Source of the DNA: a virus
Direction: 5' to 3' (one strand)
Length of the DNA: 60,874 bases
UHGV virus genome: UHGV-0342847
Notes under the pieces: generated by a model
What the model was told of the DNA's origin: nothing
Databases searched by the model: none
Seen by the model: only the letters and a program-made list of their open reading frames with translations
Shown: positions 24,978 through 45,861 of the stretch, piece after piece
Numbering within the stretch: the first letter of the stretch is position 1
Layout of the letters: each line of letters opens with the position of its first letter
Position numbers and translations under genes: made by a program

Positions 24978-26039
24978 ATGCCGAGTTTAACAGACGGACA
25001 AATCAAGAACGCGCTGAAGCGTGTAGCCAAAGCGCAGAAACCTGAAACGCTGGTGGACGGCGAAGGGCGCGGCACCGGTCGTCTTGTTCTGATTATCAAA
25101 CCCCAGCCGACGCGAGTGACGTCGGTCTGGTACGCGCAGCAGTGGAACGATGGCAAGCGCAAGCTGAAGAAGATAGGTGATTACCATCATATCTCGCTTG
25201 CTGATGCCAGAGAGCTGTTTACGCGAGATTTCGCAGGAGCCATCAATAAAGGTTCTTCCATTAAGGTGCAGGGTGATACCCGTCCAGGCACCGTGGGGGA
25301 TTTATTCGAAGCCTATGCCGACTGGCTGCGCGATAGCGGCAAGTCCAGCCACAAAGAGGCCCGTAAAGGCCTGAACAAGATAGCCGACGATCTGGGGCGC
25401 AATAAACTGGCCCGTGACGTTGAGCCTGCCGACGTCGTGAACGTTATCCGTCCCATCTTTGAGCGCGGTAAGCGGTCTATGGCTGACCACGTACGCAGTT
25501 ACATTCGCAGCGCCTACAGCTGGGGGATGAAGAGCGAACACGATTACCGCTCCACCAGCCCGCGTCGCTTCATGCTGGTACATAACCCGGCTGCAGGGAT
25601 CCCCACCGAACCGAAAACTGTCGGCACACGCTGGCTGTCAGAAGATGAATGGTGTGACCTGTATTTCTGGCTGGACGTGCCTGACGTGACAATATTCCCC
25701 GGCTACACCCGCGCTATGCAGTTTCTCATGCTCACCGGCCAGCGCGTAGAAGAGATAGCCCGCCTGCACGTTGACCAGTACGACAAAGCGGAAGGCCTGA
25801 TCGACTGGTCGAAGACGAAGAACGGGAGACAGCACTGCATTCCGCTACCGTCGCTGGCGATTGAGCTGCTGGAGCGTATCACGCCAAATGAGCATGGCTG
25901 GTTTTTCCCGTCAGCGATGGACCCAGAGAAGCCAGTAAGCCACGGTTCACTGTACGCGTTCCTGTGGCGGCAGCGTGACCGCGGCATACTGCCAGACAGC
26001 ACTAACCGCGATCTGCGCCGCATTAAGATTGTTGCATAA
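24978..26039 (+). CDS. int: P4-type tyrosine integrase, apparently lacking the C-terminal catalytic-Tyr segment
   Basis: N-terminal arm-binding region (DUF4102-like). Box I MLTGQRVEEIARL, the K hairpin SKTKNGRQH, and FPSAMDPEKPVS. The ORF stops 5 codons after an RDLRR (HDLRR-like) box, with no downstream Tyr. Confidence 0.75.
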   Translation: MPSLTDGQIKNALKRVAKAQKPETLVDGEGRGTGRLVLIIKPQPTRVTSVWYAQQWNDGKRKLKKIGDYHHISLADARELFTRDFAGAINKGSSIKVQGDTRPGTVGDLFEAYADWLRDSGKSSHKEARKGLNKIADDLGRNKLARDVEPADVVNVIRPIFERGKRSMADHVRSYIRSAYSWGMKSEHDYRSTSPRRFMLVHNPAAGIPTEPKTVGTRWLSEDEWCDLYFWLDVPDVTIFPGYTRAMQFLMLTGQRVEEIARLHVDQYDKAEGLIDWSKTKNGRQHCIPLPSLAIELLERITPNEHGWFFPSAMDPEKPVSHGSLYAFLWRQRDRGILPDSTNRDLRRIKIVA

Positions 26040-26042
26040 GGA

Positions 26043-26068
26043 AAGCCCCGTTCTGGGGCTTTATTTTT
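26043..26068 (+). terminator. rho-independent terminator directly after int
   Basis: AAGCCCC-gttct-GGGGCTT then TTTATTTTT. Confidence 0.6.
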
Positions 26069-26339
26069 AAATCAGGCTGCGAAGTTCGCTCTCTATTTCT
26101 CTCAGTTCCTGAATTATAAGGTCGGTATCCTGAATGCCCCTTTCAAGGGCATGAATAATTCCAGATGGCGAACCATCTTTTTTCTCTTTCAGCGTTTCAG
26201 GGTGTTCGCCGCGCAGCCGAGCCAGCGTCTGCAACAGACAAATTTTTACATCGTTCAGATCAGTATTCTGGCGTTTCTGCATGCTAACTACAGATTCAAG
26301 TCTGCTTTGTACTGCACACTCATCATTGTCAATATTCAT
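26067..26339 (-). CDS. hypothetical 90-aa protein adjacent to int/att region
   Basis: SD GAGGG 8 nt upstream. Helical, no motif recognised. Confidence 0.4.
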   Translation of the reverse strand: MNIDNDECAVQSRLESVVSMQKRQNTDLNDVKICLLQTLARLRGEHPETLKEKKDGSPSGIIHALERGIQDTDLIIQELREIESELRSLI

Positions 26340-27249
26340 AGCAATACCCTCAATTAAGTTTGATTCTTAATTTTCAGGGTTTCAAGGAAGGAAGTACAAC
26401 GAGGAATTTTTACCGAAACGATAAAAAGCGTCCCTGGCGGTCAGAACAATTATCTTCTTCCTCCGATTAGTTAGAAGACCCCGCCAGGGCGAAAATTTCA
26501 CATCCACGAATGTTATGGCTGTTACCTCATAACGCAGGTATCCCTCCAGTTGGATTTAACGCCAAGACCTCATTGAGGAAACGGAGTTCTGAAAGAATAC
26601 CTGCGTTATGAGTTGTGTTCGTGGGGTCTACTTCCCTCCTGTCACGGTTCTTTCCCCGCGTCATCATGTGTTCATTCGGTACATGAAACCCATTTGTCGG
26701 GATTCCACCGACGCCCATCTGTTTTTAAAGCCACTCAGATATCGTCCGGGCTTGTTGTGGTGTCCGGTGCTGAACCCCGGATTAATGGCGATAGGCGCGT
26801 GGAGTCGCCTCGTTTTACGTCTTGTCCGATATACCATCCTCCGCGACACCGCATAAAACTCTGCGGATTAGCATCACCCGGCTCACGGTCTTGCCAGCTC
26901 GTTTAGGGACTTTTCCAAAGTACCTGACAAGTTCTCGCTCATCTGATTAGCGCATCAGCCTGCGCATTCACCACAACGGAAAGAGCACTGGCTAACCAGG
27001 CGCGCCGACTCTTCACGATTATCGGCTCAATGCTCTTACCTGTTGCATCCTCGTCTCTTCCGAGGTGTCACACCGTACCGCCACGATGGTGAGTCGCTGT
27101 CGTGCATGTTGGAGCATGGCTTGCACATTCCGGTTGCCCTGGTCGGGTATGGATAAAGGACCGACCAGCCCGCTAACGCTGCATGTGCCATACAACGTAC
27201 TGCACATACACTATAGCAAAACAGAATATTAATTTGCAAACATGCAATA
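26340..27249. other. ORF-poor, stem-rich 0.9-kb region (candidate attP and/or structured ncRNA)
   Basis: No convincing ORF in six frames. Perfect 16-bp inverted repeat 26526-26541 / 26597-26612, and a 9-bp IR 26432-26440 / 26481-26489, among many further stems. Confidence 0.35.
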
Positions 27250-27288
27250 AAAGAAAAGCCCCAGACGTGTGAACTGGGGCTTTTGTCG
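27250..27288 (-). terminator. strong rho-independent terminator closing the late/lysis operon
   Basis: GCCCCAG-acgtgtgaa-CTGGGGC. The minus strand is followed by TTTTCTTTT. Confidence 0.6.
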
Positions 27289-27326
27289 TACTGATGGAAG
27301 CAATGTCGCGAAGCAAGTTAAATATA

Positions 27327-27896
27327 TCAGGGCTTACACTGTTTCGCCACGTCGTTTATGTAATTTTGCAGATACTGGATTACTTCGTCGTCGCGCTGGG
27401 TTGACTCTCTGAGATCGAGAACAGTTTGTTGACCAGCTGCGGAGAGTTCGATTTGTACTGCATCGCCCATGCTGCTGCTGCCGGTATCTCTGCTTGTGGC
27501 GCGCTGACCAGCTGCAAGTTTGGCTGTGGCGAGGTTTGCGGAGAGGATACGCACCCGCTTGTCACCAGCGGCAACAGCATCGCGCAGAGCATCATTTTCA
27601 CGTTTGGCATTGGCTAACTTCTCCTGAGAGGTTTTATCGGCGTTTGCGGCTGCTTCCTGTGCGGCATGCGTACGCTGTAGAGCGGAAGCGGTGTCTTGCT
27701 GCGCTTTTATGGTGATTGCAGTCTTCTCGCGGCCCCACTCCTCACGATCATTTGAGTGCTGTTGCTTCAGGTCTGCAATATCGGCTTTGTAGCTGGTGGA
27801 TGTTGCCCACCATGCGATTCCGGCACCGGACCCGGCGATAATCGCAACAGCCAGGGCAGCACCAACTGCTTTTACCTTCCAGGAGAGGGGGTTCAT
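27327..27896 (-). CDS. i-spanin (Rz-like)
   Basis: N-terminal TM segment (AVGAALAVAIIAGSGAGIAWW) and a long coiled-coil periplasmic domain. Last gene of the lysis cassette. Confidence 0.65.
   Translation of the reverse strand: MNPLSWKVKAVGAALAVAIIAGSGAGIAWWATSTSYKADIADLKQQHSNDREEWGREKTAITIKAQQDTASALQRTHAAQEAAANADKTSQEKLANAKRENDALRDAVAAGDKRVRILSANLATAKLAAGQRATSRDTGSSSMGDAVQIELSAAGQQTVLDLRESTQRDDEVIQYLQNYINDVAKQCKP
27380..27610 (-). CDS. o-spanin (Rz1-like) embedded in the +1 frame of Rz
   Basis: Lipobox LVTSGC and a Pro-rich mature region, fully inside the Rz gene. Confidence 0.55.
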   Translation of the reverse strand: MPNVKMMLCAMLLPLVTSGCVSSPQTSPQPNLQLVSAPQAEIPAAAAWAMQYKSNSPQLVNKLFSISESQPSATTK

Positions 27897-28198
27897 GTTC
27901 GCGGTTTCCGGTGTGATTTAAGCATCTTCATGAAGAAATGCCGCAGCCCTATACAGGCTACGGCGACGACGACAATCTGATTGGATCTGTAAATCGTGAG
28001 CGAGTGCTCAGAGAAAATCGCCGCAAATGCGGCGATAGCGATAGCTGAGTACATAATGCGTCCGAGAATGCCATCCTTCACACTCTGACTGAAGACGCAC
28101 CATGTAGCCCACAAGAGGATTACGATATAAACGCCGGTTACGATCATTGAGAGCCTCCACCAAAACGAGATTTGATAACCTCCTTTGCCAGCGACCAT
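27893..28198 (-). CDS. membrane protein in lysis cassette (possible antiholin/second holin)
   Basis: Two or three hydrophobic helices. Overlaps its neighbours. Confidence 0.35.
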   Translation of the reverse strand: MVAGKGGYQISFWWRLSMIVTGVYIVILLWATWCVFSQSVKDGILGRIMYSAIAIAAFAAIFSEHSLTIYRSNQIVVVAVACIGLRHFFMKMLKSHRKPRT

Positions 28199-44679: not shown

Positions 44680-45861
44680 CTACGCCGACAGGCGAGTTAT
44701 TTTCACGCCAGCATTGGCTAGCTGATATGACCCAGAGCCTGAGTTATAGAAATAGACTACGCGCTGTGCTCCAGCAGCAAGCCTTTCCATACATACCAGT
44801 CTGATTAATGTCGTAGAGTTTTCCCCCATAGATACTACTCCAGCAGCGCTGTAACCTGTCCTCAGCGATGTTGGCACTGTGGTGGTATCGGTGCTGATTC
44901 CCAGCAATGCTCCTTCAGGAGGCTGACCGGAACCGCCGCCAACAACCCTTATCCACAACTCAAACATGTATATCCCTGCCTGGGGAACAGTGAATATGGT
45001 ATTGCTCGTTTTGGTTATCCCGCCACTCAGCTCATTACTGGTGAAAAATGGTATCGCGGTGTAAGCGCCAGCAGGGAACGTCGTAGCGCCTGGATTTACC
45101 TGGTCAGCGTATGGCGCAGCCTGTAGGGAGGCAAGATCCTGCCATGCACCCCACACACCGCCAGACCTGAAACGAACATACGTCCTGCCTGTTGCGTTGA
45201 TAACGCCGAACTGAGTGAGGTCGTTACCACTCGATGCCACTGTCCAGCCATGGCCAAAGCTACCTGCTACTGGCGTATTTGTTGATGCACTCGACCACTG
45301 GAACTCTTTATTCCTGACGGCAGTGTTTAGATCTGCGGTGACGTTAAGAAACGATGCACCCAACTCAAGATCGTTAACATCAACTTCAAGCTGAGCGATA
45401 TCGCCTTCATTTGCCGTCACTCTCGCAGTTAGTGCAGTCAGGTCTGTTTGTAGATGTGAAACATCGATCTGCAACTGAGTGACGTCACCTCCGACACTAT
45501 TCAGCTCGTTACTGATCGTGGCAATGTCATTTTCCAGTTGGGTGAGCGCCCCTTCCGCATCAGCAATTCGCTGCTCCAGTGCGCTCATTGCTGTTTCAAG
45601 GTCATTAATATTCTGCTCGACCTCGTTAAGTCTGATTTCAATCTGTGTTATCTGCGCATTGATATCGTCAATATCATCCTTGACCTCCTTCAGCGCAGTT
45701 TTCAGGCTTTCAATGGATTTCCTGACCTCTGCGATGATCTTCTGAACGTCCACCAGCTCGCCACGCCTCAGCGCCCACTCTCGTGGATTGCCACGCGAAC
45801 CCCAGAGAATTTCCAGCTTTTCGGTAGCTAACTGTCCGCCAACACCGGCACGTCCCGCCAT
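44680..45861 (-). CDS. tail fiber protein (N-terminal anchor, heptad coiled coil, C-terminal globular domain)
   Basis: Long run of heptads DIDDINAQITQIEIRLNEVEQNINDLETAMSALEQRIADAEGALTQLEND..., then a Gly/Ser/Thr-rich distal domain. Confidence 0.6.
   Translation of the reverse strand: MAGRAGVGGQLATEKLEILWGSRGNPREWALRRGELVDVQKIIAEVRKSIESLKTALKEVKDDIDDINAQITQIEIRLNEVEQNINDLETAMSALEQRIADAEGALTQLENDIATISNELNSVGGDVTQLQIDVSHLQTDLTALTARVTANEGDIAQLEVDVNDLELGASFLNVTADLNTAVRNKEFQWSSASTNTPVAGSFGHGWTVASSGNDLTQFGVINATGRTYVRFRSGGVWGAWQDLASLQAAPYADQVNPGATTFPAGAYTAIPFFTSNELSGGITKTSNTIFTVPQAGIYMFELWIRVVGGGSGQPPEGALLGISTDTTTVPTSLRTGYSAAGVVSMGENSTTLIRLVCMERLAAGAQRVVYFYNSGSGSYQLANAGVKITRLSA

Follow-up and report, generated by a model that had tools for sequence, protein, structure and literature searches.

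tRNA-like RNAs include the transfer RNA (tRNA)-like domain of bacterial YrlA/Y-RNA, the tRNA-like domain of transfer-messenger RNA (tmRNA), and the 3' tRNA-like structures of viruses. Two further RNAs, GOLLD and ROOL, adjoin tRNA genes in phages and prophages, and models for both are included in the Rfam library. GOLLD and ROOL are described in one report as large ornate structures (10.1101/2024.12.08.627333). Phage tRNA genes can also be gathered into cassettes in the late leaders of lambdoid phages, between Q and the holin gene, as in phages L and Sf6 (PMC8022706). Here we analyze a region of the UHGV virus genome UHGV-0342847, positions 26340-27249 of a 60,874-nucleotide (nt) stretch that we refer to as the window. 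The genome is that of a Lastavirus-like phage, and its nearest records are the Klebsiella phages SopranoGao, ZX1, and LASTA, with about 77% nucleotide identity in the integrase gene int. The region is bounded by the terminator of the lysis cassette above and by a minus-strand gene for a protein of 90 amino acids (aa) below. We conclude with confidence that it is a non-coding, structured-RNA transcription unit. The more specific statement, that positions 27239-26415 on the minus strand form a dedicated promoter-to-terminator unit built of tRNA-derived structured modules whose transcript is processed, is in our estimation probable, and processing by the tRNA machinery in particular is put forward tentatively.

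The window RNA is kin in kind to all of these known RNAs, but it belongs to a different family. It shares genomic niches and strand with phage tRNA cassettes; its units adjoin phage tRNA genes, and relatives of the window phage carry tRNA-Ser or tRNA-Arg in the same operon. In contrast to those cassettes, the elements in the window have no anticodon arm, their D- and T-like hairpins are non-canonical, and they are missed both by ARAGORN, which finds 0 tRNA genes in the window, and by the Rfam tRNA model (no RF00005 match even at E <= 10). The window unit also has its own promoter and terminator and lies outside any late leader. Decayed tRNA genes were considered as well, and an alignment of 11 phage tRNAs to the region matched only chance words of 7-9 nt. 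The resemblance to tRNA-like RNAs lies in a T-arm-like hairpin on which an acceptor-like helix is stacked, a second hairpin in the D-arm position, and a possible loop-loop "elbow". However, the family has no sequence or covariance-model similarity to them in Rfam 15, it lacks a CCA end, most copies lack a canonical T loop, and its middle region is hypervariable, with inserts of 29-170 nt that are unrelated in sequence. GOLLD and ROOL are likewise structured phage non-coding RNAs associated with tRNA genes, but the window RNA is modular, consisting of units of 90-230 nt that occur separately, in phages of Proteobacteria. Rfam 15, including its large phage-associated RNAs, gave no match at E <= 1 over 25500-28000 and only chance-level hits at E <= 10, and at 15 homologous loci the gathering threshold was passed only by true tRNAs, the int-alpA RNA, and an insertion sequence (IS) frameshift element elsewhere. 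We found no description of the element in the full-text literature, including by exact sequence strings, with subscription journals outside our reach. Hammerhead and other small ribozymes, integron attC sites, IS200/IS605 ends, retron non-coding RNA, and RNase P RNA were also considered; their likeness was superficial and by eye, with no covariance-model support. An earlier note on this DNA had proposed a large structured RNA as one reading of the region. The RNA is indeed structured and non-coding, but separable modules make it up in series, and it does not form a single monolithic RNA.

The unit and its modules are as follows, in the direction of transcription.

27250-27288, minus strand: intrinsic terminator closing the lysis cassette (endolysin, holins, Rz/Rz1), AAAGCCCCAG-ttcacacgt-CTGGGGCTTTTCTTTTATT, also given as AAAGCCCCAG-9 nt-CTGGGGCTTTT (inverted repeat I2)
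27210-27239, minus strand: predicted sigma-70 promoter, with -35 TTGCAA at 27239-27234, an 18-nt spacer ending in TGC (extended -10), and -10 TATAGT at 27215-27210
27046-27198, minus strand: L1, a multi-hairpin RNA domain of about 150 nt, with the blocks GTATGGCACATG, CAGCGG, GGGTAGCCGGAATGTGCAAGCC, GCACGAC, and TCACCATCGTGGCGGTACGGTGTGACACCTCGGAAGAGACGAGG between variable hairpins
26978-27045, minus strand: P1 hairpin, CAACAGGTAAGAGCAtTG ... CAGTGCTCTTTCC around a variable insert
26754-26977, minus strand: tRNA-like cloverleaf, consisting of an acceptor-like helix, hairpins B and D, and a branched arm
26977-26969 / 26762-26754, minus strand: acceptor-like helix, GTTGTGGTG pairing with CACCACAAC, followed by an AAT linker
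26965-26950, minus strand: hairpin B, GCGCA-GGCTGA-TGCGC
26949-26782, minus strand: branched arm of 168 nt, in the position of the anticodon arm
26781-26763, minus strand: hairpin D, TCCGG-GGTTCAGCA-CCGGA, directly adjoining the 3' acceptor strand as a T arm does
26613-26753, minus strand: L2, a second leader-type module with a T-arm-like hairpin GTCGG-TGGAATC-CCGAC, ending in ..GAACACAAC
26526-26612, minus strand: long RNA hairpin formed from a 16-bp inverted repeat, about 23 pairs as minus-strand RNA, with conserved apical CCUCAAUGAGG and GGCGUUAAAUC
26415-26490, minus strand: predicted intrinsic terminator of the non-coding unit, CCCTGGCGG at 26489-26481 and CCGCCAGGG at 26440-26432 with an inner stem, then ACGCTTTTTATCGTTT

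Promoter and terminator thus enclose about 790 nt made up of L1, the P1 hairpin, the cloverleaf with its 168-nt branched arm, L2, and the long 3' hairpin. The helices of the cloverleaf, the long hairpin, and the terminator stem show compensatory substitutions, which indicates that the helices have been maintained. For the cloverleaf we used an insert-trimmed alignment of 76 distinct copies (A3), in which 7 of 9 acceptor pairs, 2 of 5 pairs in hairpin B, and 4 of 5 in hairpin D covary. Pairing is seen in 93.7% of the cells, compared with 83.9 +/- 0.5% in shuffled alignments (0/500), and there are 161 doubly changed cells against 43 in the shuffles, again a level that 0/500 reach; when partners were slid out of register as a control, at most 47% of cells were paired. 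Among non-Watson-Crick pairs G.U outnumbers A.C, as expected for an RNA read from the minus strand. The framework that emerges from the aligned copies is CAACAGGTAAGAGCAtTG-insert-CAGTGCTCTTTCC / GTTGTGGTG AAT GCGCA-GGCTGA-TGCGC / variable insert / GCCGG-AGATCAGCA-CCGGC CACCACAAC, which could be recognized in 10 phage groups. Its architecture is that of a tRNA, in that two distant strands form the acceptor-like helix and the 3' strand of this helix continues the T-arm-like hairpin D. The 168-nt arm of the window is a version common to four other phages, with 12 compensatory pairs among five homologues.

The same scaffold is widespread. Pattern scans of IMG/VR anchored on hairpin B, together with annotated phage and prophage loci, yielded at least 284 distinct units at no fewer than 281 phage loci, spanning 41-67% GC. 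In the 284 distinct units among the matches listed there are 65 different 9-mers at the 5' acceptor position, and an exact complementary 9-mer follows within 430 nt in 115 of them, compared with 4.6 expected from swapped controls. Searches with blastn placed pieces of the region in 237 phage records and 235 E. coli genomes, mostly in unannotated gaps. The contexts are consistent. In P22-like and lambda-like phages the pieces lie in the interval from Q to the holin gene, in Uetakevirus and related prophages they lie between terminase and portal genes and beside small reverse-strand genes, and in T1-like, N4-like, Vi1-like, and P1-like phages they occupy intergenic gaps. Association with tRNA genes is close: 79 of the 80 tRNA genes within 1 kb of a unit share its strand (among the matches listed), and several begin only 4-9 nt past a unit.

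TTGCAA-18-TATAGT is the sole promoter-like site in 25900-27500, with a predicted transcription start near 27203. Both hexamers and the 18-nt spacing are kept in the closest relative found, the IMG/VR contig L139 (TATGCT), in SopranoGao (TATATT), and in LASTA, although the spacers themselves differ in sequence. The tRNA-like unit of L139 begins 6 nt past the -10. Conservation of L1 starts about 5 nt after the predicted start, and an alignment of 18 distinct copies contains six pairs with compensatory changes, strongly conserved junction blocks, and variable hairpins. L1 was present in 53 of the first 135 loci. The stem of the P1 hairpin covaries in RCS47, where it reads GGTAAGGGTA / TACCCTTACC. 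The insert of the window P1 holds two small hairpins (GCCGA/TCGGC and CTGG/CCAG), and in RCS47 and Magnus the insert ends with a T-arm-like GGTTCGAWTCC hairpin. Positions 26966-27045 are 96% identical to lambda 44789-44868, directly past the tR' terminator. Because this match is on the opposite strand, the element reads on the minus strand of the window.

Protein-coding genes do not account for the region. The earlier note had seen no credible open reading frame (ORF) there, and we agree: none exceeds 97 aa in 26340-27249, no ORF is conserved, and the longest minus-strand ORF of the upper part, which covers L1 with 62 aa, has stops or frameshifts in 17 of 17 homologues. The indels in the L1 alignment of 18 distinct copies are also not multiples of three. 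The upstream boundary of the non-coding unit is the lysis-cassette terminator (27250-27288), which the earlier note had named as the late-operon terminator and which is visible on the minus strand; its position is kept in L139, SopranoGao, and LASTA, and it was absent from the output of the scan tool because its loop is longer than 8 nt.

Both inverted repeats described in the earlier note are present in the sequence, and both find a place in the lower part of the unit. The perfect 16-bp repeat (26526-26541 / 26597-26612) extends to 24 nt with 88% complementarity (26526-26549 / 26589-26612), and three U.G pairs lengthen the stem of this long hairpin on the minus-strand RNA only. In a four-phage alignment its inner stem changes on both sides (GGTAT/ATACC, GGGCA/TGCCC, GAACGTC/GACGTTC). 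The 9-bp repeat (26432-26440 / 26481-26489) is the GC-rich stem of the terminator, followed by CGCUUUUUAU; the loop of this terminator is unusually large, at 40 nt, and for this reason it too was missed by the scan tool. In L139 both members of three stem pairs are changed (CCCCGCCAG / CTGGCGGGG), and its U-run reaches eight. Altogether the terminator and the long hairpin show nine compensatory pairs among four phages, with U-runs of 5-8. Folding of the lower 400 nt on the minus strand is far more stable than that of shuffles (z = -5.66, 0/100). The earlier note's suggestion of a structured non-coding RNA is supported by a conserved promoter and terminator, several helices with compensatory base changes in homologous phages, and reading of the minus strand.

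L139 has the promoter, the cloverleaf, tRNA-Ser(gct), the long hairpin, the terminator with 8 U, and a 94-aa gene, and LASTA carries tRNA-Arg(tct) in the slot of tRNA-Ser(gct), directly upstream of the long hairpin, so that in both phages the long hairpin adjoins the CCA end of a tRNA. In relatives a tRNA gene or another P1 plus cloverleaf comes right after L2, and neither follows it in the window. L2 is 96% identical over 141 nt to the contig L049, in which a P1 hairpin and cloverleaf come at once after it, and this arrangement implies that modules have been shuffled at short ..ACAAC junctions. The first 60 nt of L2 also occur in SopranoGao, L138, IME11, L025, and L065. The motif (A)CAAC is a shared module end after L1 (27045-27041), the acceptor 3' strand (26758-26754), and L2 (26617-26613), and it is also found in L015 and L049; it may be a processing site, or else a microhomology for the shuffling of modules between phages.

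A homologous locus offers information on expression. In the prophage PP10 of enteropathogenic E. coli (EPEC) E2348/69, a unit of the family has been annotated as the non-coding RNA ncR36 (2837057-2837169, plus strand), and the stretch just downstream of it on the same strand was reported as an Hfq-bound small RNA (sRNA) candidate with chimeras from the ligation and sequencing of interacting RNAs (RIL-seq) (PMC8550237 supplements). An L1 homologue lies directly upstream of ncR36. These annotations and RIL-seq data support transcription of the inferred strand at the homologous locus, rather than in the window phage. The locus (NC_011601 2836815-2837365, L136) holds ncR36 at the position of a pseudogenic tRNA-Gly of 113 nt called by RefSeq, and the downstream candidate is named ncR36.E2348C_2757.IGR. 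Canonical tRNA D and T arms lie within its outer helix, GTTGTGG / CCACAAC; the outer helix therefore corresponds to an acceptor stem and the family is tRNA-derived. The segment 26400-26625 of the window showed no homology to the Hfq-bound intergenic RNA of E2348/69. We also considered whether PasB or another named EPEC prophage sRNA might be this locus, but PasB lies in PP6, and only ncR36 and the adjacent intergenic candidate coincide with it.

On this basis we propose a model in which host tRNA-maturation enzymes would cut the primary transcript, with RNase P acting 5' of the acceptor-like helices and endo- and exonucleases at their 3' sides. Cutting would release stable, tRNA-shaped RNAs that combine a conserved scaffold with a variable arm as payload, and our best guess is that the released RNAs bind or titrate a host factor that recognizes RNA of this shape. 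Alternatively, the elements might serve as punctuation for the processing and stability of phage tRNA and late transcripts. More broadly, it is plausible, if somewhat short of probable, that the cloverleaf scaffold and its frequent partners L1 and P1 constitute an uncatalogued and very widespread class of phage tRNA-derived structured RNA, with a frame read by a host factor or by the tRNA-processing machinery and a hypervariable arm that acts as a lineage-specific payload, such as a decoy against tRNA-targeting defences, a sponge, or an antisense RNA.

Among other explanations, the one that fares best is that the region is an eroded tRNA-gene island, in which relics of tRNA genes and their spacers persist passively without present function. 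The derivation of the units from tRNA would fit, as would the shuffling of modules at ..ACAAC junctions, the loss from the window of a real tRNA present in its relatives, and the degenerate state of the lambda copy, which sits in the tR'-to-S leader. We nevertheless consider this unlikely. Relics would not keep 65 different acceptor stems (among the matches listed) paired, and compensatory changes preserve the helices across very divergent phages. Moreover, hairpins B and D, which are not tRNA hairpins, are 95-100% conserved in genomes from 41% to 67% GC (hairpin B in part by construction, as discussed below), and the promoter and terminator are conserved as well.

A second possibility is that the region contains the phage attachment site (attP) of the neighboring integrase, as the earlier note had suggested, especially within 26424-26617, which includes the 16-bp inverted repeat. 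The genes and signals that bear on this are the following.

24978-26039, plus strand: tyrosine integrase gene int with an in-frame internal deletion, ending ...NRDLRR/IKIVA*, as aligned to the 421-aa int of SopranoGao
26042-26062: bidirectional terminator between the 90-aa gene and int
26067-26339, minus strand: 90-aa gene, an ORF with a GAGGG ribosome-binding site, assigned to phrog_6238 and without a Pfam match
29093-27327, minus strand: endolysin, holins, and Rz/Rz1, preceded by the gene for a 4047-aa protein and upstream of the terminator at 27288-27250

The location between int and the late genes would suit an attP, and in SopranoGao the stop codon of an intact int adjoins the segment homologous to 26424-26617 and overlaps the U-run of the terminator. 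All five Lastavirus-like genomes examined keep the inverted repeat together with its loop, and in LASTA and L139 a tRNA gene adjoins the repeat, tRNA genes being common integration targets. The region does not lie directly after int as had been stated, since the 90-aa gene and the bidirectional terminator intervene. An attP also requires a competent adjacent integrase, and the window int is not one. The L139 int has 416 aa and ends ...RRKRRIKIVA*, from which it follows that the deletion in the window int is internal and in frame. Between two RR motifs some 63-70 codons are missing, about 70 residues relative to the SopranoGao and L139 proteins, and with them the H...RHY segment that holds the catalytic Tyr. 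The window phage should therefore be unable to integrate by means of its own int, while full-length int is kept in SopranoGao, ZX1, L138, and L139. The repeats themselves behave as minus-strand RNA structures: the U.G extension exists only in the minus-strand RNA and the inner stem covaries, which is characteristic of an RNA hairpin rather than a protein-binding core, and the 9-bp repeat forms the stem of a terminator with a U-run after it. Relatives vary in what adjoins the repeat (tRNA-Ser, tRNA-Arg, or a tRNA-like unit), which points to cargo and not to a rebuilt host gene.

Searches aimed at attP were also negative. No arm-type direct repeats were found, only two-copy repeats of chance size (9-12 nt), none of which flank the inverted repeat. 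A search of 26400-26640 against 5,426 E. coli genomes for the host attB core gave no match at E <= 1e-5, a threshold that a short core would not reach, and a replacement 3' end of a host gene, another earlier suggestion, was not seen. Neither the GTDB species representatives nor E. coli genomes nor IMG/VR yielded an integrated relative; IMG/VR gave four relatives that are not integrated. Mapping of attP through integrated relatives was attempted, and scans of genome contigs returned only chance matches. The lambda attP/sib-type region is also near int, and in relatives the long hairpin and terminator are close to the int stop codon, but in the window they are on the strand opposite int, int is defective, and there is neither a core/arm organization nor a host match. 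A functional attP in the window genome is thus not supported, and we regard this explanation as improbable; relatives with an intact int may keep a short attP core somewhere in the stretch.

The region could also serve the 90-aa gene (26339-26067) as a long 5' leader or a cis-regulatory sequence, since it is on the same strand and directly upstream. Small same-strand genes also come after the Uetakevirus copies, and in E2348/69 the stretch downstream of the tRNA-like unit has been classed as the 5' untranslated region of the next gene. Yet the conserved terminator separates the RNA modules from the 90-aa gene, so the leader function raised by the earlier note is possible only through read-through of that terminator. 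L139 and LASTA keep homologues of the 90-aa gene at this position, but in SopranoGao the RNA modules are present and the gene is absent. Elsewhere the scaffold precedes tRNA genes, further units, or unrelated genes, and the 145 downstream proteins fall into 101 clusters, on which ground we rejected a cis-regulator of one gene family. We give the leader explanation a low probability, and expression of the 90-aa gene may depend on read-through or on a weak promoter that belongs to the gene. A mobile DNA element akin to a miniature inverted-repeat transposable element (MITE), or a set of small unannotated protein genes, is very improbable: the cloverleaf ends do resemble terminal inverted repeats, each with GTTGTGGTG and a hairpin with a GCTGA / TCAGC loop, and small ORFs overlie the elements in the annotations of SopranoGao (SopranoGao_1), Magnus, ZCKP8, and RCS47 (plp/upl), but the terminal 9-mers differ between copies and yet match their own partners, as in an RNA helix and unlike a site common to one transposase, only one strand tolerates G.U, co-orientation with tRNA genes is strict, and the ORFs are not conserved.

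Several observations weigh against a structured-RNA transcription unit processed from a dedicated promoter. The evidence for expression comes from the homologous EPEC locus and not from the Lastavirus-like phage of the window, and both RNase P processing and any trans-acting function are inferred. The modules vary in order and combination, which also fits recombination debris traveling with tRNA cassettes, and the window copy has no real tRNA gene, so that the unit could be decaying here. The upper 466 nt fold no more stably than shuffles (z = -1.39 on the minus strand and -0.55 on the plus strand); the earlier description of the region as stem-rich thus holds statistically for the lower 400 nt but not for this part, whose putative structure is based on covariation and not on folding energy. 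Furthermore, the sample of units was gathered by sequence pattern, which makes the conservation of hairpin B partly a product of the search, and the 98.9% complementarity between loops B (GCUGA) and D (UCAGC), in which changes are only G.U-compatible, includes a 5' loop that was fixed by the search pattern. Judged from sequence, this complementarity suggests a possible elbow-like kissing contact between the two loops.

If the family is functional, the tR'-to-S interval of lambda would hold an unnoticed conserved structured RNA, as would P1-, P22-, T1-, N4-, and Vi1-like phages, and the tRNA-derived class would be a counterpart, in phages of Proteobacteria, to the tRNA-associated RNAs GOLLD and ROOL. 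It would also account for many of the doubtful small ORFs and "empty" gaps between genes that phage annotations contain, and it would offer a substrate for asking why phages carry tRNA islands, whether for translation supply or in connection with tRNA-directed defences and processing enzymes. For the window, it means that the gap near int is a predicted RNA module rather than a recombination site.

Some further observations concern individual members and neighbors of the family. The E. coli core-genome sRNA RydB (Rfam RF00118) has an 18-nt hairpin, GCCGGAGAU(A/C)AGCGCCGG, and the strand after it pairs with a segment upstream; RydB is similar to the family in this respect. It differs in that only the hairpin matches, weakly, at 17.7 bits where the gathering score is 50 (E = 0.13 with 241 nt searched), and in that RydB has neither hairpin B nor the AAU junction. 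In E. coli K-12 (1764713-1764780, L393) its hairpin GCCGGAGAUAAGCGCCGG is nearly identical to hairpin D, and AUGGGG can pair with an upstream CCCCUU; RydB is possibly a relic of such an element, which is speculative.

Annotated small ORFs overlap units of the family in several phages, some of them on the opposite strand. Examples are plp/upl of the P1-like phage RCS47 (L015, 1070-1543), SopranoGao_1 (L001, 493-663), ORFs of 33-45 aa in Magnus (L012, 1136-1624), a 32-aa ORF in ZCKP8 (L014, 1420-1518), and the end of lambda orf-64, and these may be annotation artefacts. In Enterobacter phage Tyrion (L005), positions 2036-2100 on the minus strand match the Rfam int-alpA RNA with 44 bits, above the gathering score. 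The tRNA-like units share its strand, with the match some 1 kb downstream of them; it sits between the genes for terminase and portal and is far from any integrase. Lastly, the N4-like phage IME11 (L013, 473-2559) has a gap of about 2 kb without an annotated gene, in which two tRNA genes, a tRNA-like unit, and an L2-type module all share one strand; the gap looks like a larger non-coding RNA island.

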